52,322 nt of DNA from Candidatus Omnitrophota bacterium (GCA_003644385.1 QNCD01000003.1:1-52322); one strand, 5' to 3'; positions 1,455 through 52,321 are shown, numbered from the stretch's first letter. The notes: generated by a model not told the origin, from the letters alone. Numbers and translations are program-made.

Positions 1455-1512
1455 GTAAATTTTAAATTTTATCAGGAGTTAAACCTTTTGCGGTTATTAG
1501 AGATAAGCAGTT

Positions 1513-1587
1513 AGGGACGGTTCTCAGGCCAAAGCAAAAGTGTCCCCAAAAAGGGGACACTTTCAGATTGAGTTAAGAACCGTCCCT
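1513..1587. repeat. Nested inverted repeat, REP-like element; may also act as terminator
   Basis: Outer perfect 12-bp arms AGGGACGGTTCT (1513-1524) / AGAACCGTCCCT (1576-1587); inner perfect 11-bp arms AAAGTGTCCCC (1537-1547) / GGGGACACTTT (1553-1563). Confidence 0.75.
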
Positions 1588-1609
1588 GCTACGCTAAGAA
1601 ACGTTCCTA

Positions 1610-4600
1610 CTAATTATTGTTATTATTATCTATCTTGACTGTACCGTGGCCGGCAAACTTAAGCGCTATATCATCGATAATAGCATAAATACAGGGTATG
1701 GCGACTAAGGTTAAGGCGGTAGCGCAAATAATACCCCAGACAATGGTTAGCGCCATGGGACGTAAAAACGGATCTCCTCCCCAGAGTCCATAAGCAGTAG
1801 GAGCCAGGCCTAAAGCGGTGGTGACTGTGGTCAGGATAACCGGACGCAACCTTAACTGCCCTGCCTGAATAATAGAATCACGCCTGGCTACTTTTTTACG
1901 CCGCAGGTTATTAATAAAATCCACCAAAACAATAGAATCATTAACCACAACGCCGGTTAAGCCGACGACTCCCATTAGCATGAAGAAACTTAAATTCAGG
2001 CCGTGGAAGAAAAACGCCCAGACTACCCCGATTAAACCGAAAGGAATAGCTATCATCACTACAAGAGGTTGAATCAGGGAATTGAAATTAGCGGCTAAAA
2101 TTAAAAATATAAGAAAGAATGCCAATATAAAGGCCTTAATGAAATCCTTTATCGAGCGCACATTCTCCTCCTGTTCTCCGCCGTAGTCTATCTGGTAACC
2201 CGGATATTCCAAGGGTATATCCTTAAATTCTCTTTGCAAAAGCTGGTTTGCCTGCAGCGAGGTGACATTTTTATTGTCCACTTCCGCGCGTAGAGTAATT
2301 ACTCTTTTGCCGTCTAAGTGCCGGATGCGCTCAACTGAAATCCTCTCTTCCAGCCGCGCTATTTTATTTAAAGGAATAAGATTGCCGAAACGGTTAGGAA
2401 TAAGGATTTTTTCAAAAATTTCTTTTTCATCCCGATATTTTTCAGGAAAACGCACCAGGACATCAATCTCTTCTTCTGCTTTCACCGGCTTTATTGAAGT
2501 GGCTACTCCGCCTTTAAATGCATTGCGGATGGATGTAGCTATTTCGCCTACCGAAAGATATGCCCGCGCTGCCTCCTCCTCATCAATAATTACCCTTATC
2601 TCTCCCCTGCCAACCTCATAATCCGAGGTAATATCCGATACCCCATTGATATTAGCTAAAAATGAGCTTATTTTTTGTGAAATCTCCTCTAAAACAGAGA
2701 ATTCCTCGCCTCTAATCTGAACTGCTATGGGTTTGCCTACCGGCGGGCCCTCCTTTTCTTTTTCAAAATATACCTTCTCAAATCCCGGGGTGCCTTTCAC
2801 CTTTTCTCTTAAGGCTTCAATAATCTCATTAAGTGTTCTTTTGCGCTGGGTGTAAGGAGTGACATATACGGTAATTTGAGCTACATGGCTGCCTGACTTG
2901 CCGTAAGGGTCAAACATCCAGCTGCGGCCGATAGAGCCAACCTGTGTAGTATAGGCATCTAATTCATCCTGCGGCAGTTCTGCGATTTCATCTTCTATCT
3001 GGGCGATCAATTTATTGGTCTCATAAAGATTTGTGCCTATGGGCGCTTCGGCGCGGATGTAAAACTGCTCTATTCCTTCCTCGGAACTAAAAAGCACAAA
3101 GCGCATCCGGCTGGCCAGAAAAATCGTAGATAAAAATACACCCCCTAAAATTAAAATTACCAGATATCTTCGGTTTAGCGCCTTCTTAAGGATATTGGTA
3201 TAAAAATCAAGTAGTTTCTTAAACCAAGGTAACTCTTTTTTAAACTTGACGCTCTGATTTTTATGGGCAAAGTCGGCAAAGTGTGAGGGTAGTATTACTA
3301 AAGCCTCAAATAAAGAGGCACTTAAAGCAATAATCACCACCAGAGGAATCCCCCAGATAAATTTACCGAGCATTCCCGACATAAACATCAACGGGCAAAA
3401 TGCCGCGATTGTGGTAATGATTGTGGTGGTAACCGGCTGGGCTACCTCTTGTGCGCCGATAATCGCAGCCTCCCTCCTGTTTAAGCCGCTCTCTAAATAA
3501 CGCGAACAGTTTTCAGCCACAATGATTCCGTCGTCAACTAACATACCTAAGACCACAATTAAGCCGAACATCGTAACCAGATTTACGCTTATGCCCATGA
3601 AACCCATTATTGCTAATGTGGCGCCGAAGGCAATCGGCAGGCCTAAAGCAGTAAGAATAGCTACGCGTAAATGCAGAAATAAAACCAATACCACGCAAAC
3701 TAATAATAAACCTAAAATACCGTTGTTCTTTAAGACGCCAAGCCTGCGATTGATATAATAGGCCACATCATCAATATAGGAAACCTTTAATGCCGGATCT
3801 GCCTGTTTGAGAAAATCGCCAGTTTGTTTTCTGACTGCATCCACTACTTTTATAGAATCTCCGCTTGCGCGCTTAATCACCGTCAGATTGATCGAGCGTG
3901 TACCAGAACTCTTATTTATTATATCTTCGTCCTCAAATGAAAAGCGGACTGAAGCAACGTCTTTTATGCGCAGCCAGTTTCCGGTCTCATTAGCCCGGAT
4001 AACCACGTTTTCAATTTCTTCCTTGCTATAGAATTCCCCTGTTGTGCGAATACTGTATTCTTTCTCACCGCGCAGCTTTCCTGCAGGCACACTGATATTC
4101 CTCTTACGCAGGGCCTCCATAACTTCTTCTAAGCTCAAATAGGCTTCTTTGAGTTTAAAGGGATCGACCTCCACCCAAACTTCTTTATCTCTCCATCCCT
4201 TGCGGAAGATGCGGGATACCACGGGAATATCCTCTAGTATATCTTCAAGGCTTTCTGCGTATTCCTGGAGCTCGCTCTCCGTGAGCTGACCGCTTAAAGC
4301 AACCTCAATCACCGGAATCTCTCCGGAAGTAACCTCTGTAACATAGGGCTCCTCGGCTTCTTTGGGCAGGCCCTGCGCACGATCCACTGCCTGTTTTATA
4401 TCATCGACAACCTTATCCTTATCTTTGGCGTCCTGGCTAATATTGACTAAAATACTGGAATTATTTTCAATAGAAGCAGATTGTATCTCTTCTATCCCAT
4501 CAACGCCCTTAAGTTCTTTTTCTATTGGTACGGTAACCAGCTTCTCTACTTCTTCGGGAGCAGCGCCCGGATAAAAAGTAGTTATAACCACTCTATCAAA

Positions 4601-41642: not shown

Positions 41643-43208
41643 GTGATGTTAGCCAAAGTACTCAGTTTCGGTTTATGCGGAATAGAGGCGTATCCTATTG
41701 AAATAGAAGTAGATGTTTCAAACGGCCTACCCACATTATCATTAGTGGGACTTGCTGATACCACTATAAAAGAAAGTAAGCAGCGGGTTAAATCAGCAGT
41801 AAAAAATTCAGGTTTTAAATGGCCGGAAGGAAGAATTACCATAAACCTCGCCCCTTCGGACTTGAAAAAAGAGGGAGCCTGTTACGACCTACCCATTGCC
41901 CTGGGTATATTGGCGGGGAGCGGACAACTAAACAGTGAAAACTTAAATATTTATTATATTTTTGGTCAATTATCTCTAGATGGCTCACTGCAACCAATAA
42001 GAGGGATATTACCTATCAGCATGGAAATCGCAAAATCCCTACATATTCACGAAACTCCTTTATCATTAAAAAAGGAAAACCTTATTGTCCCCCTGCAAAA
42101 TGCTAAAGAGGCAGGGTTAGTGCCAGGGGTCAAAGTTTGGCCGCTAAAAACATTAAGGGAAACAGTAGAGTTTCTCAATAATCGAAGTATGGCTATGCCA
42201 TTAAAATTAAATTTTAAAAATTTGTTTGAGCAGAATTCGCGGTATAGAATAGATTTCTCTGAAGTTAAGGCTCAATTTTTAGCCAAAAGGGCAATTGAGG
42301 TTGCCGTGGCTGGAGGCCACAACATCTTGATGATCGGCCCACCCGGAAGCGGCAAGACTATGCTCGCCAAAAGGATCCCTACAATTATGCCTGATTTAAC
42401 ATTAAATGAAGCGTTAGAATTAACTAAAATACATTCTATTGCGGGGACGCTGCCCAAAAATGAAGGCATAATGGCCACCCGGCCTTTTAGAAGCCCGCAC
42501 CATAGTGCATCTGATGTAGCGTTAGTAGGCGACGGGTCAATCCCTCAGCCAGGAGAAATAAGCCTGGCACACCAGGGTGTTCTATTCTTAGATGAATTGC
42601 CGGAATTCCAGCGCAGTTCTTTAGAAGCTTTAAGGCAACCCCTTGAGGAAGGATTAATACGCGTTTGCCGTATCAAAAAATCATTTGTATTTCCTGCCTC
42701 TTTTATGTTAGCAGCAGCTATGAACCCCTGCAAGTGTGGCCATTTTAACGACCTTAAATCTTCCTGCAGGTGCACGCCAAATGAAATTTACAAATATCGC
42801 GCTAAAATATCCGGTCCTTTATTGGATAGAATAGACATACATCTTGAAGTACCTGCTGTGCGTTATCAAGAACTAACATCCAGAGTGCCTACTGAAAGCT
42901 CTGCTCAAATAAAAGAAAGGGTAAATAAGGCGCGTGAGATTCAAAGAAAAAGGTTAAAAAATGAAGGAATTTTATGCAATGCTCAAATGTCTCATAAGCA
43001 GGTACGCAAATTCTGCGAATTAGGCAAAGAGGAAAATGAGCTTTTGAAGATGGCGATGACAGAACTTAATTTTAGCGCCAGGGCATACGACAAAATACTG
43101 AAAACCTCAAGGACTATCGCTGATTTAGGCGATTCTGAAAATATCTCAACAGAGCATTTGTCAGAGGCGATTCAGTACCGCTCTTTAGATAGAGATTTCT
43201 TCCTTTAA
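41643..43208 (+). CDS. comM: YifB/ComM Mg-chelatase-like AAA+ ATPase
   Basis: IEVDVSNGLP, ITINLAPSDLKKEG, GPPGSGKTMLA, RPFRSPHH, LFLDELPEF, AAMNPCKCG, SGPLLDRID, SARAYDKI, EAIQYR. Confidence 0.96.
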   Translation: MMLAKVLSFGLCGIEAYPIEIEVDVSNGLPTLSLVGLADTTIKESKQRVKSAVKNSGFKWPEGRITINLAPSDLKKEGACYDLPIALGILAGSGQLNSENLNIYYIFGQLSLDGSLQPIRGILPISMEIAKSLHIHETPLSLKKENLIVPLQNAKEAGLVPGVKVWPLKTLRETVEFLNNRSMAMPLKLNFKNLFEQNSRYRIDFSEVKAQFLAKRAIEVAVAGGHNILMIGPPGSGKTMLAKRIPTIMPDLTLNEALELTKIHSIAGTLPKNEGIMATRPFRSPHHSASDVALVGDGSIPQPGEISLAHQGVLFLDELPEFQRSSLEALRQPLEEGLIRVCRIKKSFVFPASFMLAAAMNPCKCGHFNDLKSSCRCTPNEIYKYRAKISGPLLDRIDIHLEVPAVRYQELTSRVPTESSAQIKERVNKAREIQRKRLKNEGILCNAQMSHKQVRKFCELGKEENELLKMAMTELNFSARAYDKILKTSRTIADLGDSENISTEHLSEAIQYRSLDRDFFL

Positions 43209-43523
43209 ACCAAGAATGGCTTTGAGTTTTTCTTGGGTTCTTCTATAGGGGTTTTATATTTCTTGCCTCCCAATTATATACTGTGGTTTCAGTAACCCCT
43301 ACTCGCCTGGCAAGCTTTTTCATCGTAATACCTAAATCCATACGTCTTTTCTGATTCTCTCGCCAATCTTATGATGCTTCGGATATCGAGGATTAAACTC
43401 AAAGCGATTAACTTCGATTTCAAGAGTATAAAATAATCTGCCTTTAGAATCATCTCTAAAACTCATTAGACTCTTCCTTTCTAAAAAGAAAGTCCGCATT
43501 TTAAAAATGCGGTCTCTTGCCAA
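43185..43523 (-). pseudogene. XRE-family HTH regulator remnant (left copy)
   Basis: TLEIEVNRFEFNPRYPKHHKIGERIRK / RMDLGITMKKLARRVGVTETTVYNWEARNIKP / YRRTQEKLKAILGL; shifts near 43348 and 43250. Confidence 0.75.
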
Positions 43524-44241: not shown

Positions 44242-44574
44242 CTATTCTTTTGATTTAATGACCTTGTTTACTGCAACAATAGCAATGCTTCCGACCCCTT
44301 CCTGTGTAAAATCAATCTTTTCCTCTGTAAGTAATTTATTAAATTGCGCCAAGAAATCCTTTTGGTCAATTAAGGCTAATATGGTCTTACAGGCAGCTCT
44401 TTTCTCTCCAATCATCTGCCGTAATCCGGCAAATATAGGCACTTCATGCGCTAAATAGTCTCCGAGTCTCTCGCCATCTTGGATAATTGCATCGGAAATT
44501 TCTAATTCTGCTAAAATAGATAATATCGGCTCAAGGTATTCTTCTTTATTAAGCACAATCACCATAAGTTCCAT
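44242..44574 (-). CDS. PII-like (GlnB-fold) small protein
   Basis: 110 aa: MELMVIVLNKEEYLEPIL...EVPIFAGLR...KTILALI...GVGSIAIVAV; GGAGG RBS; follows the antiporter gene. Confidence 0.7.
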   Translation of the reverse strand: MELMVIVLNKEEYLEPILSILAELEISDAIIQDGERLGDYLAHEVPIFAGLRQMIGEKRAACKTILALIDQKDFLAQFNKLLTEEKIDFTQEGVGSIAIVAVNKVIKSKE

Positions 44575-44591
44575 TGTATCCCTCCAATATT

Positions 44592-45788
44592 TTATTTGGC
44601 TTTACCAATTTCTCCGGCCTTTGAGATAGCAAATTTCGTCGCTATAGGCCCTATTATTTCAAAAATTATTGTAGTTGCCGCAATAGTATTTATTACAGCT
44701 ACAGCTAAATCTTTCCCCGTAGCCCCGAGAGAACCAAATTCTCTTGTTGCCAGTATAGCAAATCCTATTGCAACACCGGCCTGCGAAAGAATGCCGAGCC
44801 CTAAATATTTTCTAATAACAGGGGCGGATTTGGATATAGTGGCTCCGAAATAGGCACCGCCCATAAGCCCTAATATCCTGCATACGATATAGATTAGACC
44901 CAATAGCCCAATTGCTGGAAGAAGACCAATCTGTAAATGCGCACCGGCTATAACAAAGAATACAATATAAATGGGAAGGGTGATTAACTGTGTCGCCTGA
45001 TATGTTCTTCGATTCGCCAGTAAGAATGTGTTAGCGAATATCATCCCTAAGCTCAAATTTGCCAAAATTAACGAGAAATTAAAACATTTAGACAGACCCG
45101 TGCAAAGTATTATGCAACCCAAGGCTATGACTAATATTTCGCTTTTATTATAAACCTTGCGTATAGAATATCCAAGTAAAAGTCCCATAAGTCCACCCAA
45201 AAGAATAGCTCCACCTATTTCAATAACTGGTTTCCCAATAGTATTAATTAGAGACATATTATCGCCTGTTATAAAAACTTTCGCTAAACCTGATGCAAAT
45301 GCATAAATTATAATAGCTAACCCGTCATCGAGTCCGACAACAGCATAAAGTGAATTCGTTAGAGGACCTTTTGCCTTATATTCTTGTAAAACCACGGCCG
45401 TTCCCGCTGGCGCTGATGCAGGCGCCATAGCTCCGAAAATAAGCGCTAAATATATCTTATGGGTTAATAGGTAAACACCCAGCGCGACAAGCAGAAATGC
45501 TCCAAAAGATTCTGAAAATATAATGGTAATTATACCTTTTCCCATTTTCCGGAGCGTGCTAATACGCATTTCACAACCAATGACAAAAGCAACCAATCCC
45601 AAAGCCAAATCATTAAAGACTCCCATTTTCCCCAAGATGCCGATATTTAGAATATTGGTAAAGGAAGGCCCCAGTAGAAGGCCTGCAATAAGATATCCGA
45701 CAACAGACGGCAACCTAAATTTGTTGCTAAATTTGCCTCCGAGGAATCCTGCGATGATAGAAGTGCCTACAAATACCAATATATCCAT
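44592..45788 (-). CDS. Cation:proton antiporter (CPA2 / Na_H_Exchanger)
   Basis: LPSVVGYLIAGLLLGP, AFVIGCE, ASAPA, VGLDDG, FFVIAGAHL, SQAGVAIG, EIIGP; no cytoplasmic RCK tail. Confidence 0.92.
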   Translation of the reverse strand: MDILVFVGTSIIAGFLGGKFSNKFRLPSVVGYLIAGLLLGPSFTNILNIGILGKMGVFNDLALGLVAFVIGCEMRISTLRKMGKGIITIIFSESFGAFLLVALGVYLLTHKIYLALIFGAMAPASAPAGTAVVLQEYKAKGPLTNSLYAVVGLDDGLAIIIYAFASGLAKVFITGDNMSLINTIGKPVIEIGGAILLGGLMGLLLGYSIRKVYNKSEILVIALGCIILCTGLSKCFNFSLILANLSLGMIFANTFLLANRRTYQATQLITLPIYIVFFVIAGAHLQIGLLPAIGLLGLIYIVCRILGLMGGAYFGATISKSAPVIRKYLGLGILSQAGVAIGFAILATREFGSLGATGKDLAVAVINTIAATTIIFEIIGPIATKFAISKAGEIGKAK

Positions 45789-45804
45789 AATCTTCTAACT
45801 CTTC

Positions 45805-46635
45805 CTATGATTCAACTTTTCTAAATTCATCCAGGATTTCTTTGGGATTCGAAGCTGCCAGAAGTCTTTTTCTGAAATCCTCTTTTTGCAAAAGTCTGCT
45901 TAAGTGAGCAAGAAGCTTCAGATACGCACTTAATTTTTTCTTTGCAGGTGTGCCGATTAAAAATACAAGCTTAACCGGTCTTTTATCTATAGCATCAAAG
46001 TCAAATCCTTCTTTAGACCTCCCAAAAGCGATAACAACGTCTTCCACGGTATCGGTACGGGCATGTGGGACAGCGACTTCATATCCAATACCTGTTGAAA
46101 CCATCTTCTCTCGAGTGAATACCGCAGAAACAAATCCTTCAAAATCAACGATATCTTTTTCTTTTTTAAGAATCTCTGCCAGTTCTTTAATTACATCTTC
46201 TTTTGTCCGTCCTTTTAAATCAAGCAAAATGTTTTCTTCTTTGAGATATTCGCAAAGTTTCATTTTGACATTCTCCTCTCTTTTCTGTGTGTAAAATGAA
46301 CCCTTCTCCAAATGTTTTACTTTTACATAAGGTAGTGTGCAAACAAAAGCCTTTTCGTTAAAATTCCTCCATCTTGAGGAAGATGTGTCATCTTCAAGAT
46401 GATTCATAATCCGTTCTATTTTTTTCTCATCGTCTACAAGGGCTATAAGGGCCTTGTCGTATTCCTTTGAAAGACCTCCTTTCCGAAATCCAAGGGTGCC
46501 CGCCGAATCACCCTCTAATAGAGAGCCGATTCCATTCCGCCTAATAATAGTTACGTCTGGAATTTTTTCCTTCTGTATAAGTGGCATAATCGATTGAAGA
46601 TAATTCTCATTTTTATGCATTATAACCAATAACAT
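45805..46635 (-). CDS. PII-like domain fused to PTS EIIA (Fru/Ntr type)
   Basis: Start ATG 46635 after GGGAGG. N half resembles the 44242 protein (MLLVIMHKNENYL...YDKALIALV...AFVCTLP); C half is EIIA: REKMVSTGIGYEVAVPHAR...FDAIDKRPVKLVF. Confidence 0.82.
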   Translation of the reverse strand: MLLVIMHKNENYLQSIMPLIQKEKIPDVTIIRRNGIGSLLEGDSAGTLGFRKGGLSKEYDKALIALVDDEKKIERIMNHLEDDTSSSRWRNFNEKAFVCTLPYVKVKHLEKGSFYTQKREENVKMKLCEYLKEENILLDLKGRTKEDVIKELAEILKKEKDIVDFEGFVSAVFTREKMVSTGIGYEVAVPHARTDTVEDVVIAFGRSKEGFDFDAIDKRPVKLVFLIGTPAKKKLSAYLKLLAHLSRLLQKEDFRKRLLAASNPKEILDEFRKVES

Positions 46636-46690
46636 GGCATCCTCCCGCGTTAAAAATGACTTTCCGTCAAATTTATAGTTCTCTACAGAA

Positions 46691-47002
46691 TCAAAGGATG
46701 GGAGGAGAGTGATTAAATAAGTCGGAATAAAAGAATAAGTAAGTACTAGAATGGTTGTGTCCAAATAAAGTAACGAAAGAATTGAGGGGATGTATTGAAT
46801 GGGTTAAAATAGGAACATCTGTGTCTGGAAAAAAGTCAACAGGATGATAATCCTTTTTGTTAGATTTGATTTCTTTGATTTCGCAAATCTCTTCTCTGCT
46901 TTCGGCCTCTTGACATATAGGAGTAACCATATGCAAACTGAATTCCGGAAGCATGACGATTAATAATACAAAATTTACTAACAAAGTCTTGTGTTTGTTC
47001 AT
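46691..47002 (-). CDS. Hypothetical protein
   Basis: 103-aa ORF between the two EIIA genes with a hydrophobic N terminus; no motif recognised. Confidence 0.35.
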   Translation of the reverse strand: MNKHKTLLVNFVLLIVMLPEFSLHMVTPICQEAESREEICEIKEIKSNKKDYHPVDFFPDTDVPILTHSIHPLNSFVTLFGHNHSSTYLFFYSDLFNHSPPIL

Positions 47003-47020
47003 CGTAATCTTCTGGGTTAT

Positions 47021-47728
47021 CTAAATCTGATTGCCGGCATACATATGTTCTCTGTCGAATAGCAATAATATTTGGGTTATTTCGTCCTTAGTTTCTGCCT
47101 GTAATAATTTTTTTATAACGCCGGGCATGTGAAAAAATTTAGCAATTTTTGCCAATAATCTAATATGAGTATATTCATTAGAAGTGCATGGCATAAAGAA
47201 AATATGAACGGGCTTCTTATCAGCTGAATCGCAATCAATCCCATTTTTAGAAAGCAAAATAACTATCTTAGATTCTACAAACAAATCTGGAGAAGGATGC
47301 CGAGGATGAGGAATAGCTATACCATTACCTATAGCTGTACTCAAAAATTTCTCTCTTTTTTTAAGTTCACTAAGAAGTTTCTCTTGCGAAGGAGTCAAGC
47401 CTTCTGTATGGGCAATTTTCGCTAATTTCTCAAGAACCGCGTCTATATCTTTTGCTTTTGAATCTAACTCAATCAGATTATGATTTGTCATTCTCGATAA
47501 GGGAATGATATCAACCTCGGTTTTGATTACCGAATCCAATTCCTCATCAGGTGCTTCTGATAGATCCTTTAATAAAAAATTATCGATGGCTTTCAAATGA
47601 AATCGCCATTGGTTGCCAATTTTTACTCCAGGCAGATGGCCGCTCTGAGCCATCTTTATTATGGTTTTTTCATTCAACTTCAGATATTCCGCCAACTCCT
47701 GCGTGGTAAAAACCTTATTTTGCTCCAT
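47021..47728 (-). CDS. Excisionase-like HTH_17 domain fused to PTS EIIA(Ntr) (PtsN-like)
   Basis: FTTQELAEYLKLNEKTIIKMAQSGHLPGVKIGNQWRF; REKFLSTAIGNGIAIPHPR. Confidence 0.92.
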   Translation of the reverse strand: MEQNKVFTTQELAEYLKLNEKTIIKMAQSGHLPGVKIGNQWRFHLKAIDNFLLKDLSEAPDEELDSVIKTEVDIIPLSRMTNHNLIELDSKAKDIDAVLEKLAKIAHTEGLTPSQEKLLSELKKREKFLSTAIGNGIAIPHPRHPSPDLFVESKIVILLSKNGIDCDSADKKPVHIFFMPCTSNEYTHIRLLAKIAKFFHMPGVIKKLLQAETKDEITQILLLFDREHMYAGNQI

Positions 47729-47775
47729 ATCCGTATATTAACCTATTTTAACTTAAACTGACTTACTTTAACCCA

Positions 47776-47804
47776 AGTATGCCATATCTCTCATTTTCTG
47801 TCAA
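47776..47804 (-). promoter_or_regulatory. Sigma70 promoter of the EIIA-antiporter operon
   Basis: Minus strand TTGACA (47804-47799) N17 CATACT (47781-47776). Confidence 0.65.
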
Positions 47805-47816
47805 GAGTAAAAACGA

Positions 47817-48094
47817 TTATCCCTCAATAAAATTAAACGCACGAGAAAAATGCCTTTTGGCTGGTTGCAAGCCTCTTAATTCACAATTAATAACCGTCCT
47901 CAGGGGTCACGCCTATGATCTCTGCAATCTCTTTTATATACAGGCCCTTATCCATACGGGCTTTTCTGAGCTTCTCGCCTAGATTTTGGGAGTTCTTAGG
48001 GTAATCAGGGTTGAATTCGTTCAAATTCAGGCTTAATTCAAGCTTAATTCAAGCTCATAAACAAAAGGAGTGTTGCTATTATGTGCATCAGGGT
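47817..48094 (-). pseudogene. XRE-family HTH regulator remnant (right copy)
   Basis: NPDAHNSNTPFVYELELS / LNLNEFNPDYPKNSQNLGEKLRKARMDKGLYIKEIAEIIGVTPE / TVINCELRGLQPAKRHFSRAFNFIEG*; broken by an 11-bp duplication (AATTCAAGCTT, ~48035-48055) and a 1-nt shift near 47898. Confidence 0.75.
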
Positions 48095-48560
48095 TGCCCG
48101 TGCGGTTATTATACCGATTCCAGGAAAGCCTGTAAATGCAGCCCGGGTAAAATCCAAAATTATATGAATAAAATATCCGGCCCCCTTTTAGACAGGATAG
48201 ATATCCATATAGAACTACCTGCCTTAAAATATAAAGAGTTAAGCCAGAGAGAAGAAAATGAATCATCCGACATAATTAAAGCCCGGGTGGAAAAAGCACG
48301 AGTTATCCAAAGGCAGAGGTTAAATCCGAAGGTATCCCTTACAATGCCCAGATGAATACTAAATTAATAAAAAACATTGTCTCTTGGAAAATGAGACCCA
48401 AAGACTGCTAGGGATGGCAATGACAGAATTAGGATTTTCGGCAAGGGCTTATAACAAAATTTTAAAGGTTTCCCGCACCATTGCTGACTTGGCAGGTAAT
48501 AATAGCATCTATCCGCAACACATCTCTGAAGTAATACAATATAGGAGTTTGGATAAATAA
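48095..48560 (+). pseudogene. comM: Orphan 3' third of comM, two frameshifts
   Basis: CPCGYYTDSRKACKC...KISGPLLDRIDIHIELP...QRQR / KSEGIPYNAQMNTKLIK / HCLLE...MAMTELGFSARAYNKILKVSRTIADL...EVIQYRSLDK*; 1-nt losses near 48320 and 48372. Confidence 0.92.
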
Positions 48561-50935: not shown

Positions 50936-52321
50936 CTATTCCCTTTTTTTGGTAGAAGCAAAATCGATAATTGTATTGAGTTCTTGTTTAGATATCTTAA
51001 TTATCTTAACGCCCACACCGTACTTATCATCTTTGAGCCGGACTATTCTGGTTACCTGTGCTACTACTGCTATGGGCAAAGAACTGTATTCTTTTGGCAT
51101 TTCCATCTGAACGGTAATAAGAGAACCTATAACTAAAGGCCTATCCGATTCAAATAAAAAGCCGCTGCGGCTGACACTTGTTGTCTTAGAGCGTATGTAA
51201 TCTCCCTCTAAGGGAAAAGAAATATCGATTTCTGCTTTATATCTCACTGCTTCTCTGCGCTCAGGGCCTTTGTATGTCTCGGTATCTACAAAAAACGGGG
51301 CTGCTTTTGCTTTCTGGGGAAGCAATTCTTTTTCTTTGATTTTTGCTGGGATTTTTTTATAATAAGCCTCAAAGGCATCTATTATTTCCGATAAAATACC
51401 TAAAAAAGGCTGAGCCGTACAACCGGTAATTTCTTCTACCTCCTTAATTGCCTTGCTATCAAGGGGGTCGGCCATAACAATAGTAAGTAAGTTGCCAACT
51501 TTGTCTACAGGAATCAACCAATATTTTTCCGCGATATCTACCGGAACCAGCTTTATCACTTCTGCGGGTATCTTGTAAGAACTTAAGGGTAGGTAGGGCA
51601 CGGCGAATTGTGTACACAGGCACTGGGCGAGCTGATATTCGTCTATATAGCCGTAAGCAAGTAAAAATTGGGTGAGATTACCTCCGTATTCCTTTTGGTA
51701 TCTCCTAGCTTTATCCAAAATATCCTGCGTAATATAATTATTTGCTAATAAAATTTCTCCGATTTTTTCCTTTTTTTGTTTTCTGATTACTTCCAGACGC
51801 CTGCGCGTTTCTTCGCTTTCTTCCCCTGCGGTATCAGCGGAGGGTGCTTTCATTTTGCTTTTGTATGAAGCAATAAGGTTTGTCCGGGCTTCTATTTCTT
51901 CATTCAACTCGTCGATTTTATTCTCTAATTTTTCGACTTTAGAAGATAGGTTCTTATTTTCTTTTCCTAAATCAAGAATGGTTTGATTCTTCTTTTTAAG
52001 CTCTATTTCTATTTTTTTGTTTTCGGTTTGCAGTTTATTGATTTCCTGCCTAGCCGACTCTTCTTCCTTAGCCGAACGCTTAGGCTCTGACTTGCGCAAC
52101 TCTAATAGGTTTTTTAATTCCGCAGTTAACTCCTTGTTTTCTTTTTCCAGTGATAAAAGGCTATCGCCCTTTCTCCCAAGCTCACTTTCTAATATTTCAA
52201 CCTCCTGGCGCAGTTTCTCTAATTCCTGGTCTTTGCTTTGTAGTTGTTCTCTAAGGACGTTGATCTCTTTTTCTATTTCTGCCGCCCCTAGCTTTTTGGC
52301 ATGCGCATCTTTAAGTTGAGC
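50936..52321 (-). CDS. Coiled-coil + MshEN/GSPII_N + PilZ protein, 5' end outside window
   Basis: Frame is open to the window edge; KIGEILLANNYITQDILDKA..Q, VPVDIAEKYWLIPVD..MADPLD, ERREAVR..SVSRSG. Confidence 0.88.
   Translation of the reverse strand, partial: AQLKDAHAKKLGAAEIEKEINVLREQLQSKDQELEKLRQEVEILESELGRKGDSLLSLEKENKELTAELKNLLELRKSEPKRSAKEEESARQEINKLQTENKKIEIELKKKNQTILDLGKENKNLSSKVEKLENKIDELNEEIEARTNLIASYKSKMKAPSADTAGEESEETRRRLEVIRKQKKEKIGEILLANNYITQDILDKARRYQKEYGGNLTQFLLAYGYIDEYQLAQCLCTQFAVPYLPLSSYKIPAEVIKLVPVDIAEKYWLIPVDKVGNLLTIVMADPLDSKAIKEVEEITGCTAQPFLGILSEIIDAFEAYYKKIPAKIKEKELLPQKAKAAPFFVDTETYKGPERREAVRYKAEIDISFPLEGDYIRSKTTSVSRSGFLFESDRPLVIGSLITVQMEMPKEYSSLPIAVVAQVTRIVRLKDDKYGVGVKIIKISKQELNTIIDFASTKKRE

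Follow-up and report, generated by a model that had tools for sequence, protein, structure and literature searches.

In E. coli, PtsN (EIIA-Ntr), a protein of a phosphotransferase system (PTS) branch that has no role in sugar transport, inhibits the K+/H+ antiporter YcgO, otherwise known as CvrA (PMC11808508; bioRxiv 10.64898/2026.08.14.744764), and K+ homeostasis is a recurring theme of this PTS-Ntr branch (PMC13104625). Here, we describe an operon on the minus strand (47804-44242) of a 52,322-nucleotide (nt) stretch of DNA, referred to below as the window, from a Candidatus Omnitrophota bacterium (GCA_003644385.1 QNCD01000003.1:1-52322), for which PtsN acting on YcgO is the closest characterised system. 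The operon forms one compact transcription unit in which a promoter is followed by five tightly packed open reading frames (ORFs), namely a helix-turn-helix (HTH) protein of the HTH_17 type that carries an EIIA domain (gene 1), a leader ORF of 103 residues, a PII-like domain fused to EIIA (gene 2), a CPA2 antiporter without a tail (gene 3) and a 110-residue PII-like protein (gene 4), with successive gaps of 18, 55, 16 and 17 nt. On balance we lean, if only slightly, towards reading these five genes as an imported operon in which a tail-less CPA2 antiporter is accompanied by its own signalling proteins and controlled at three levels, so tying ion balance to metabolic state in a recurring but unstudied arrangement.

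The initial annotation of this region had described a promoter followed by four intact, co-oriented genes, which supply two EIIA domains that keep the phospho-His motif (AIPHPR and AVPHAR), two PII-like domains, one of them fused to EIIA, and an antiporter without a regulatory tail. The promoter, the co-orientation, the intactness and each of these domain assignments are borne out below, but the count is not, as there are five ORFs and the leader had been overlooked. The same annotation held that no characterised system has such a composition. The literature agrees, in that a search in which subscription journals and supplements were not covered brought up neither an account of an EIIA/PII-like/CPA2 cassette nor one of an HTH_17-EIIA regulator, but the control of an antiporter by EIIA(Ntr) is known from PtsN and YcgO and had gone uncited. 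What is specific to the window is the set of operator repeats, the linkage of a leader ending in HSPP to the extra PII domain, the mobility borne by comM and the full five-part arrangement.

Cation/proton antiporters set the cytoplasmic pH, K+ and Na+. Like PtsN with YcgO, and like PtsN with TrkA or KdpD, the operon would combine the regulation of monovalent-cation transport with an EIIA from the PTS_EIIA_2 family whose phospho-His is conserved; as with YcgO, the proposed target is a cation/proton antiporter and the PTS branch is one without a role in sugar transport. The differences lie in how the parts are joined. PtsN binds YcgO, a CPA1 protein, on an RCK and CorC tail that is part of the antiporter itself, whereas gene 3 is CPA2-like and tail-less; the EIIA gene here belongs to the same operon as the antiporter; PII-like proteins, one or two in number and one EIIA-fused, come in as extra components; and neither EIIA domain reaches the cut-off of the PtsN equivalog model. 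A second comparison is with KefC and KefB, together with KefF and KefG, and with the RCK- or CBS-tailed CPA2 proteins, where the activity of a CPA2 exchanger likewise depends on cytoplasmic regulatory parts and which find an echo in related cassettes, where CBS pairs are joined to EIIA or to CPA2. In those systems the regulatory part is a fused KTN/RCK domain or a quinone-oxidoreductase-like subunit, whereas here it would be provided by separate PII-like and EIIA proteins.

The Na_H_Exchanger match of gene 3 (PF00999, 92.2 bits against a cut-off of 26.2) spans residues 15-376 of 398 and thus leaves the protein without a cytoplasmic tail, and a domain scan found no RCK/TrkA or other tail. The match to TIGR00932 is only 37.1 bits (cut-off 238.3). 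The nearest solved structure is that of the CPA2 protein NapA (5bz2, E 1.8e-11), with CPA1 NhaP proteins close behind. A pair of aspartates (DD) in the crossing helix is the ion-binding motif of CPA2 proteins; in gene 3 the pair is D154 and D155, which is invariant in 37/37 cassette antiporters and aligns with the DD of Thermus NapA. Against this stands the position of NapA Lys305, which is Leu in gene 3 (residue 308, window 44866-44868) where the consensus of the family (n=37) has Lys. The paralogous antiporter on contig 152 of the same genome likewise has Leu at this position, and Arg304 is invariant. The alignment of the DD motif with NapA suggests that gene 3 is a functional exchanger despite the Leu.

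Both EIIA domains are members of the PTS_EIIA_2 family (PF00359; cut-off 27 bits), gene 1 at 109.6 bits (E 1.6e-31) and gene 2 at 127.5 bits (E 5e-37), and both keep their phospho-His motif, GIAIPHPR in gene 1 and VAVPHAR in gene 2. The gene-2 histidine aligns with the PH of the PtsN structures 2a0j and 4gqx, of which 2a0j is the nearest solved relative (E 9.8e-17), and the P-H-A-R motif is invariant in 24/24 fused homologues. Genes for EI and HPr lie adjacent and intact on contig 21, and we consider it likely, from these conserved features, that the EIIA domains are phosphorylated by EI/HPr; the EIIA domain of gene 2 would then report the phosphoenolpyruvate (PEP)/pyruvate state. All four EIIA domains of the genome occur in transporter contexts, and EIIA domains seem to be a general transporter-regulating currency in a genome without a detectable EIIC. 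The genome also holds one DAC-domain gene, and a 614-residue amino-acid permease of the AA_permease_2 family (contig 1, minus strand, 1471-3315) that ends in a PTS_EIIA_2 domain.

By their scores the EIIA domains are PtsN-like and not PtsN orthologues, with 79.6 bits for gene 2 and 60.3 bits for gene 1 against the 138.7 of the PtsN equivalog model TIGR01419. This shortfall counts against the regulatory role proposed here, as does the absence of a detectable HPr kinase from the genome, in which no EIIC and no canonical PII was found either; with an estimated completeness of 90.7%, these absences are provisional. A further point of the same kind is that gene 2 passes the FruA-type EIIA domain model (114.3 bits against a cut-off of 103.5), which is what would be expected if the EIIA genes were the leftovers of a sugar PTS of the fructose or mannitol type and lay beside an antiporter by accident. 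We hold that explanation to be very improbable indeed, given a genome without a detectable EIIC, an adjacency seen again in dozens of genomes spread over some ten phyla, and a gene-2 EIIA that is far closer to solved PtsN proteins (E 1e-16 to 3e-12) than to mannitol EIIA (E 2e-7).

On the PII side, the precedents are GlnK with AmtB, SbtB with SbtA, and PII-NG with Czc (PMC7726332; PMC10710835). As in GlnK-AmtB, SbtB-SbtA and PotN-PotABCD, a small protein of PII fold is encoded here beside the transporter that it is thought to control, and a loop at the position of the T-loop is its most conserved part. Where the gene-4 family departs from GlnK, SbtB and PotN is in having no recognisable canonical ATP/2-oxoglutarate residues and in being systematically paired or fused with EIIA. 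PII-NG offers another parallel, as a divergent PII group genomically tied to proton/cation efflux by CzcABC (PMC7726332, citing Sant'Anna et al. 2009), but that pump is an RND-type, heavy-metal one, the group is proteobacterial and matches PF00543, and it has no EIIA partner.

Gene 4 has no Pfam or NCBIfam match of its own, and the gene-2 N-domain, of about 105 residues, has no Pfam match. A search of 5.8 billion proteins found 49 relatives of gene 4, a minority of which carry a precomputed PF00543 label, with one named as a P-II family regulator; after near-duplicates and fragments had been dropped, 40 were aligned, and 30/40 match PF00543 at E 1 or better (best E 9.2e-9). An AlphaFold2 model of gene 4 built from this alignment reaches a predicted local distance difference test score (pLDDT) of 89.6, with strands and helices ordered beta-alpha-beta-beta-alpha-beta. 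Among PDB structures, Foldseek matches it best to PII proteins, GlnZ, GlnK, TT1020 and PotN among them, at probability 1.00, with 4co5, 1v3s, 3mhy and 6yc7 among the top entries at template modelling scores of 0.54-0.66 (normalised by query length); 144 matches have E 0.001 or better, PotN (7o4x) among the matches. The gene-2 N-domain aligns with the gene-4 family in hhalign (probability 98.2%, E 5e-14) and shows the same order of strands and helices in a model with pLDDT 83.8. On this evidence from modelled structure, and for the gene-2 N-domain from hhalign and secondary-structure order, both small domains are relatives of the PII fold, and the initial annotation, which had proposed a check by hidden Markov models (HMMs) and Foldseek and had named the lack of a GlnB-like fold as a ground for refutation, is not refuted on this count. 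The family is a large one, with 884 clusters at E 0.001 or better and 396 at E 1e-10 or better among 1.84 billion representatives, clusters being defined at 50% identity.

How these domains relate to EIIA is indicated by their fusions. The order PII then EIIA is seen here and in 23 aligned homologues, and the reverse order, with a gene-4-type domain, in 4 of the best 150 representative clusters, and since the two are fused in either order, EIIA and the PII-like fold probably touch each other physically; such a contact would be a new class of partner for both families. PII-like domains of the gene-4 family are also found fused to PilZ, a c-di-GMP receptor, and to a PrmC-type methyltransferase (P0244, P0222).

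Several features of gene 4 fit less well with a PII-type sensor. Alongside the missing domain match, the profile of the gene-4 family brings up solved PII proteins at no better than E 0.031, and in an HMM alignment to 2eg1 it has G-x-G-x-I where PII has GDGKIF, with the B-loop lysine and the C-terminal RxR both unmatched, which leaves nucleotide binding by this family uncertain. The unmatched residues would sit more easily with PII-like proteins that are structural or assembly subunits of the antiporter, after the manner of KefF and KefG (PMC11808508, introduction), and with EIIA domains that are degenerate, non-phosphorylated binding modules. A fixed protein-protein contact would also account for the P-I-F-A-G loop (residues 46-50, at the T-loop position), invariant in 40/40 sequences and the most conserved part of the family, where the gene-2 N-domain carries a different loop. 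Subunits of this purely structural kind are nevertheless quite improbable, since the 24/24 conservation of P-H-A-R together with intact EI and HPr argues that the phospho-His is in use, and since CBS pairs, another nucleotide-sensing fold, replace the PII-like part in related cassettes, which fits a sensing role. Two scanned proteins of 305-308 residues have such a pair fused to EIIA, and in one of 562 residues it is fused to CPA2. Loci with CBS variants are L173:552-1478, L176:2522-3439, L091:2126-3814 and L175:2156-2518, one of which holds a separate CBS protein.

The association between PII-like proteins, EIIA and CPA2 is not confined to the window. A scan of one genome per species gave 182 confirmed gene-4 loci, the best 80 of which were examined with neighbours identified by HMMs built for this purpose; six of these 80 are cut within 500 nt upstream. 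Among the best 80 of the 182, a CPA2 gene lies nearby on the same strand in 56, an EIIA gene in 60 and both in 43, and there are two tandem CPA2 genes in 12, an upstream HTH-EIIA gene in 9 and a PII-EIIA fusion in 4. By record titles, the gene-4 loci come from about ten phyla, including Omnitrophota, Elusimicrobiota, Latescibacterota, Zixibacteria, WOR-3, Gemmatimonadota, Spirochaetota, Calditrichota and Aminicenantes. The same architectures appear in 80 metagenome loci centred on the gene-2 EIIA, and 13 of 22 loci from the phylum centred on HTH-EIIA have a CPA2 gene within flanks of about 1.5 kb. The genome itself holds a second module on contig 152 (1-2913), consisting of a leader with NHSPP, a PII-EIIA fusion (42% identity) and a CPA2 antiporter (67% identity); it adjoins a transposase-like fragment, so labelled by eye, and is cut by the end of the contig. 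The initial annotation had made the co-occurrence of the genes in other genomes a test of its proposal, and the 43 loci with both CPA2 and EIIA, of the best 80 out of 182, leave that proposal standing. In this widespread cassette two major signalling systems of bacteria, the PTS phosphorelay and the sensors of PII type, are brought together on a single transporter.

The loci without CPA2 tell in the opposite direction. There are 24 among the best 80, some truncated, and 35 of the 125 ORFs around them, the nearest on the same strand, were scanned with Pfam. Subunits of Mrp (MnhE/MrpF) lie beside the EIIA/PII-like pair in three spirochaete loci (L070, L072 and L090), G/I subunits of a V-type ATPase lie beside the PII-like gene, without EIIA, in two (L063 and L065), and a Pkinase-PEGA Ser/Thr kinase lies beside the pair in five, from Calditrichota-type records (L077, L079, L083, L084 and L087). 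The PII-like proteins of these ten loci belong to more distant branches of the family. Such loci raise the prospect that the EIIA/PII-like pair is a general signalling unit, co-transcribed with the membrane energy or ion system of the lineage, with targets that may lie outside the operon, and that the antiporter itself is unregulated. The fusions to PilZ and the PrmC-type methyltransferase would agree with this, as would the partial overlap in the distributions of the parts, with HTH-EIIA in 24 and the PII-like protein in 21 of the 401 sampled genomes of the phylum. We nonetheless regard a general unit that leaves the antiporter alone as unlikely. CPA2 is by far the commonest neighbour in the best 80 of the 182 loci, the gaps of 16-17 nt here and overlaps in relatives suggest co-translation, and most of the alternative neighbours (Mrp, V-ATPase) are themselves cation/proton machines, so that what they have in common as a target would seem to be ion or pH homeostasis and not something arbitrary.

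Returning to control of the antiporter by its own operon, the EIIA of gene 2 and the PII-like proteins, that is the gene-2 N-domain and gene 4, would switch it by direct contact, and the PII-like fold would do the work of the cytoplasmic RCK/CorC tail that PtsN uses on YcgO. Whether they act on the antiporter directly in this way, with the PII-like fold replacing the missing tail, we judge to be evenly balanced. The reading offered by the initial annotation, a hetero-oligomeric PII-like cap that would couple PTS phosphorylation and nucleotide status to Na+/K+:H+ exchange, with HTH-EIIA in control of transcription, is supported in part, by the two PII-like folds, the recurring gene neighbourhood, the repeats upstream of HTH-EIIA and an EI/HPr pair in a genome in which no EIIC was found at 90.7% estimated completeness. 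PII proteins are trimers, and the transporters of GlnK-AmtB, SbtB-SbtA and PotN-PotABCD are trimers or ABC systems, whereas CPA antiporters are dimers. This mismatch of symmetry tells against the proposal, in that a symmetric plug of the GlnK-AmtB or SbtB-SbtA type does not transfer directly. A prediction of the complex between antiporter and PII-like protein at 1:1, from an alignment of 37 rows for each, gave a score of 0.00, which speaks neither for nor against binding.

A second level of control would be transcriptional. The HTH_17 domain of gene 1, which is of excisionase/MerR-like type (E 2.5e-13), is joined to an EIIA domain, and full-length HTH-EIIA proteins (E 1e-50 or better) account for the 24 of 401 phylum genomes given above, the present genome included; in 13/22 phylum loci examined the gene lies upstream of EIIA or CPA2 genes. 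The promoter is not in itself a better match than chance would give, since shuffled sequence contains 15.7 promoter-like sites on average and the region itself 9, and conservation is taken as its support instead. Of 43 upstream regions of HTH-EIIA genes that were collected, 34 are distinct, and 22 of these 34 have an exact TTGACA at a distance of 59-114 nt from the start codon, a frequency to be set against 226 of 5000 random 160-nt windows drawn from the same loci. The TTGACA-N17-CATACT promoter placed ahead of the operon by the initial annotation is present and is backed by a conserved -35 box.

Between the -10 box and the start of HTH-EIIA, most relatives carry three to four units of a 10-bp direct repeat with the consensus GTTAATATAA. 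At least two units at 10-nt spacing are found in 24/34 distinct upstream regions compared with 30/5000 random windows, and at least three units in 16/34 compared with 16/5000. In 12/21 loci a strict three-unit pattern occurs no more than 130 nt upstream of HTH-EIIA; this pattern was found nowhere else in the 1.23 Mb of fetched loci, and the two-unit consensus, allowing up to three mismatches, has one match in the window against 0.01 expected. Tandem Repeats Finder did not report the 10-bp array, which was characterised by these pattern counts instead. The repeats in the window (47772-47733) are probably the operator of HTH-EIIA, and that the protein binds them is, from their position and conservation, fairly likely. 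Units one helical turn apart and downstream of the -10 box would fit cooperative binding by a repressor of the excisionase type, and HTH-EIIA on these repeats would repress or release the operon according to the phosphorylation of its own EIIA. The conserved array lends support to the transcriptional role that had been suggested for HTH-EIIA at the outset, and makes an uncharacterised transcription factor immediately testable.

The third level would act through the leader, whose product has a basic and hydrophobic N-terminus, a variable middle and a C-terminus that reads FNHSPP-IL-stop. It has no Pfam match. The paralogous module on contig 152 has a homologue in the same position, as do loci where a PII domain lies upstream. 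For a tally across loci, we counted ORFs of 50-170 residues that end no more than 600 nt upstream and have [RHQ][AGS]PP within their last 20 residues, with twelve loci that have less than 350 nt upstream set aside. Such a leader precedes 11/18 loci with a fused PII-EIIA gene, 1/7 with split PII and EIIA genes and 1/108 with a plain EIIA, where the background is 26/2832 complete ORFs of 60-160 residues from the same loci, the leader matches themselves included. Removal of duplicates and addition of one sequence from the phylum set gave 13 distinct leaders. These align with a mean column identity of 30%, and the sole invariant columns are M1 and two prolines. All 13 begin with one to three Lys/Arg followed by a strongly hydrophobic 15-mer, with a 15-residue Kyte-Doolittle maximum of 2.3-3.2 within the first 30 or so residues (windows at residues 5-31), and in all 13 a spacer of near-constant length, about 76 residues (range 75-83), separates this segment from the motif, which is HSPP in 10/13 and HAPP, RSPP and RAPP in one each and lies 2-5 residues before the stop in 11/13. 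The Ser and Pro codons vary synonymously among loci, which argues that selection acts on the peptide.

These features recall the translation-arrest peptides of the RAPP-like group (SecM, MifM, VemP, ApdA, ApdP and the RQH family), in which a small upstream ORF has an N-terminal localisation signal and a spacer of more than 30 residues, only a C-terminal [R/Q/H]-x-P-P is conserved, and the downstream Shine-Dalgarno (SD) sequence lies in a predicted helix. The published description of candidate monitoring substrates names a small upstream ORF of unknown function, an N-terminal signal or transmembrane segment, a conserved C-terminal motif and a spacer of more than 30 residues (bioRxiv 10.1101/2023.09.02.556018), and the leader has all four, its N-terminal segment being judged by hydropathy. 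Arrest peptides form an R/Q/H-A/G-P-P class, and RSPP and HGPP are arrest sequences (bioRxiv 10.1101/2023.09.02.556018; PMC12992588). What sets the leader apart is that it precedes not sec or yidC but PII-EIIA and then CPA2, that HSPP is its commonest motif and that arrest is here read from sequence. RAPP/RGPP ORFs do precede gene classes other than sec/yidC (PMC12992588); in the main text of that paper, the words 'antiporter' and 'transporter' each occur 0 times. If an arrest peptide, the leader would extend control of the RAPP type to ion transport.

As a secreted or membrane-targeted peptide of this kind, the leader would pause the ribosome at H-S-P-P and so open a helix that would cover the gene-2 ribosome-binding site. 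Thermodynamic ensembles pair the SD sequence of gene 2 mainly with the motif codons in 7/11 evaluated junctions, a further junction being outside the count, and in the window 5.85 of its 6 bases are paired with the H-S-P-P codon stretch. Shuffled upstream sequence equals the observed pairing in 13, 27, 10, 26 and 50 of 100 trials for five loci, with 13 of 100 for the window, and in 1 and 0 of 100 for two others; RNAalifold on 11 junctions between leader and gene 2 found no consensus helix, from a MAFFT alignment that is poor across spacers of variable length. Since shuffled sequence pairs comparably in most loci and a consensus helix was not found, the evidence for the helix is only suggestive. 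Both results weigh against the arrest reading, and so do the 7/18 fused loci that lack such a leader ORF and the absence of HSPP itself from the arrest motifs tested in the available text of bioRxiv 10.1101/2023.09.02.556018 and PMC12992588. Three of these points, all but the RNAalifold result, would be explained if the leader were an ordinary small secreted or membrane protein, either a partner of the antiporter or with an unrelated role, whose HSPP is functional or structural and with gene 2 expressed by simple translational coupling, and its constant length and conserved acidic middle region agree with this too. An ordinary protein would not lead one to expect that only M1 and two prolines are invariant at 30% identity, which is the pattern of an arrest peptide, nor a motif so close to the stop in 11/13, the HAPP, RSPP and RAPP variants among homologues or the full set of monitoring-substrate features. 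An ordinary protein has, in our view, about an equal chance of being right or wrong, and a RAPP-like arrest peptide is put forward as a tentative candidate, somewhat short of that level.

The most far-reaching form of the proposal is a self-contained, three-layer switch for ion homeostasis, without a described counterpart, made up of a force-sensitive, secretion-monitoring FNHSPP leader, HTH-EIIA at its operator and a PII-like docking adaptor. The leader would report membrane energisation or Sec/YidC activity and set the translation of regulator and antiporter, HTH-EIIA would read the state of PTS phosphorylation at the direct repeats, and the PII-like fold would be a detachable adaptor through which EIIA gates the transporter, as a trans-acting counterpart of the RCK/CorC tail of YcgO. 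The full combination is unlikely as it stands; if true, it would contain the first monitoring substrate in control of ion transport by a membrane protein, and targets of PII-like proteins would gain a new class.

Table 1. Coordinates in the window of the parts of the operon and of the two comM copies
Feature	Position	Strand	Description
Sigma-70-type promoter	47776..47804	-	TTGACA 47804-47799, 17-nt spacer, CATACT 47781-47776, TG before the -10 box
Candidate operator	47733..47772	-	Four tandem 10-bp direct repeats GTTAAAGTAA, GTCAGTTTAA, GTTAAAATAG, GTTAATATAC, between the -10 box and the gene-1 start
Gene 1, HTH_17-EIIA	47021..47728	-	235 residues
Leader ORF	46691..47002	-	103 residues; lies in the 385-nt interval between genes 1 and 2; conserved
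H-S-P-P codons CAC TCT CCT CCC	46700..46711	-	Predicted pairing with the gene-2 ribosome-binding site
Gene-2 Shine-Dalgarno sequence GGGAGGA	46640..46646	-	Precedes ATG 46635
Gene 2, PII-like N-domain fused to EIIA	45805..46635	-	276 residues; N-domain at residues ~1-105
Gene 3, membrane-only CPA2-type antiporter	44592..45788	-	398 residues
Gene 4, divergent PII-like protein	44242..44574	-	110 residues
Intact comM	41643..43208	+	After codon ~362 (from ~42729) the closest relative is not that of the first part
Displaced, broken comM 3' end	48011..48560	+	~ComM residues 363-517; far boundary of the inserted element

The most likely start of gene 2 is ATG 46635, giving a protein of 276 residues. 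A start at TTG 46764 is rejected as improbable, as 24/24 aligned full-length homologues begin near ATG 46635, close to M-L-x-I-V-M-H. An internal promoter in the gap between leader and gene 2, where a TATAAAT is kept in the paralogue, is unproven and has no good -35 box at 17 nt in the window. No known riboswitch or RNA family turned up when the operon and the paralogous locus were compared with Rfam, so that a riboswitch for c-di-AMP or Na+ in the 385-nt interval is unsupported.

The setting of the operon speaks to its origin. The comM remnant beyond the operon, in two pieces (48011-48355 and 48384-48560) that match Pfam Mg_chelatase and Mg_chelatase_C, corresponds to the last ~155 codons of comM and is 58-67% identical to the intact copy. 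In a comparison with nine relatives from the same family, the first 362 residues of the intact ComM and the remnant share their closest relatives, and the present C-terminal part prefers others; a mosaic at codon ~362 is as expected if the 3' end was supplied by an integrated element. A related genome of the same family also has its comM interrupted at codon 362/363 and carries two 3' copies that differ from each other (G403 contigs), and comM appears to be a site-specific integration target at this codon. Judged from these sequence relationships, the operon is horizontally acquired cargo of an element inserted in comM, from which no integrase remains. The PII-like protein was found in none of 60 genomes of the window's own family, and carriage on an element that targets comM, together with so patchy a spread, suggests an exchangeable adaptive trait in uncultivated lineages. 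That the neighbouring island genes have decayed, as the initial annotation had noted, is seen in the broken comM fragment (48011-48560) and in two flanking remnants some 60-65% similar, at ~43260-43420 and ~47880-48020. The latter have no Pfam match; judged by eye, each looks on the minus strand like the beginning of an XRE-like HTH gene, and the two may be relics of regulators of the element or of a duplication. Further along, a long coiled-coil protein that ends in MshEN and PilZ, both c-di-GMP modules, occupies 50936-52321 on the minus strand and runs off the end of the window.

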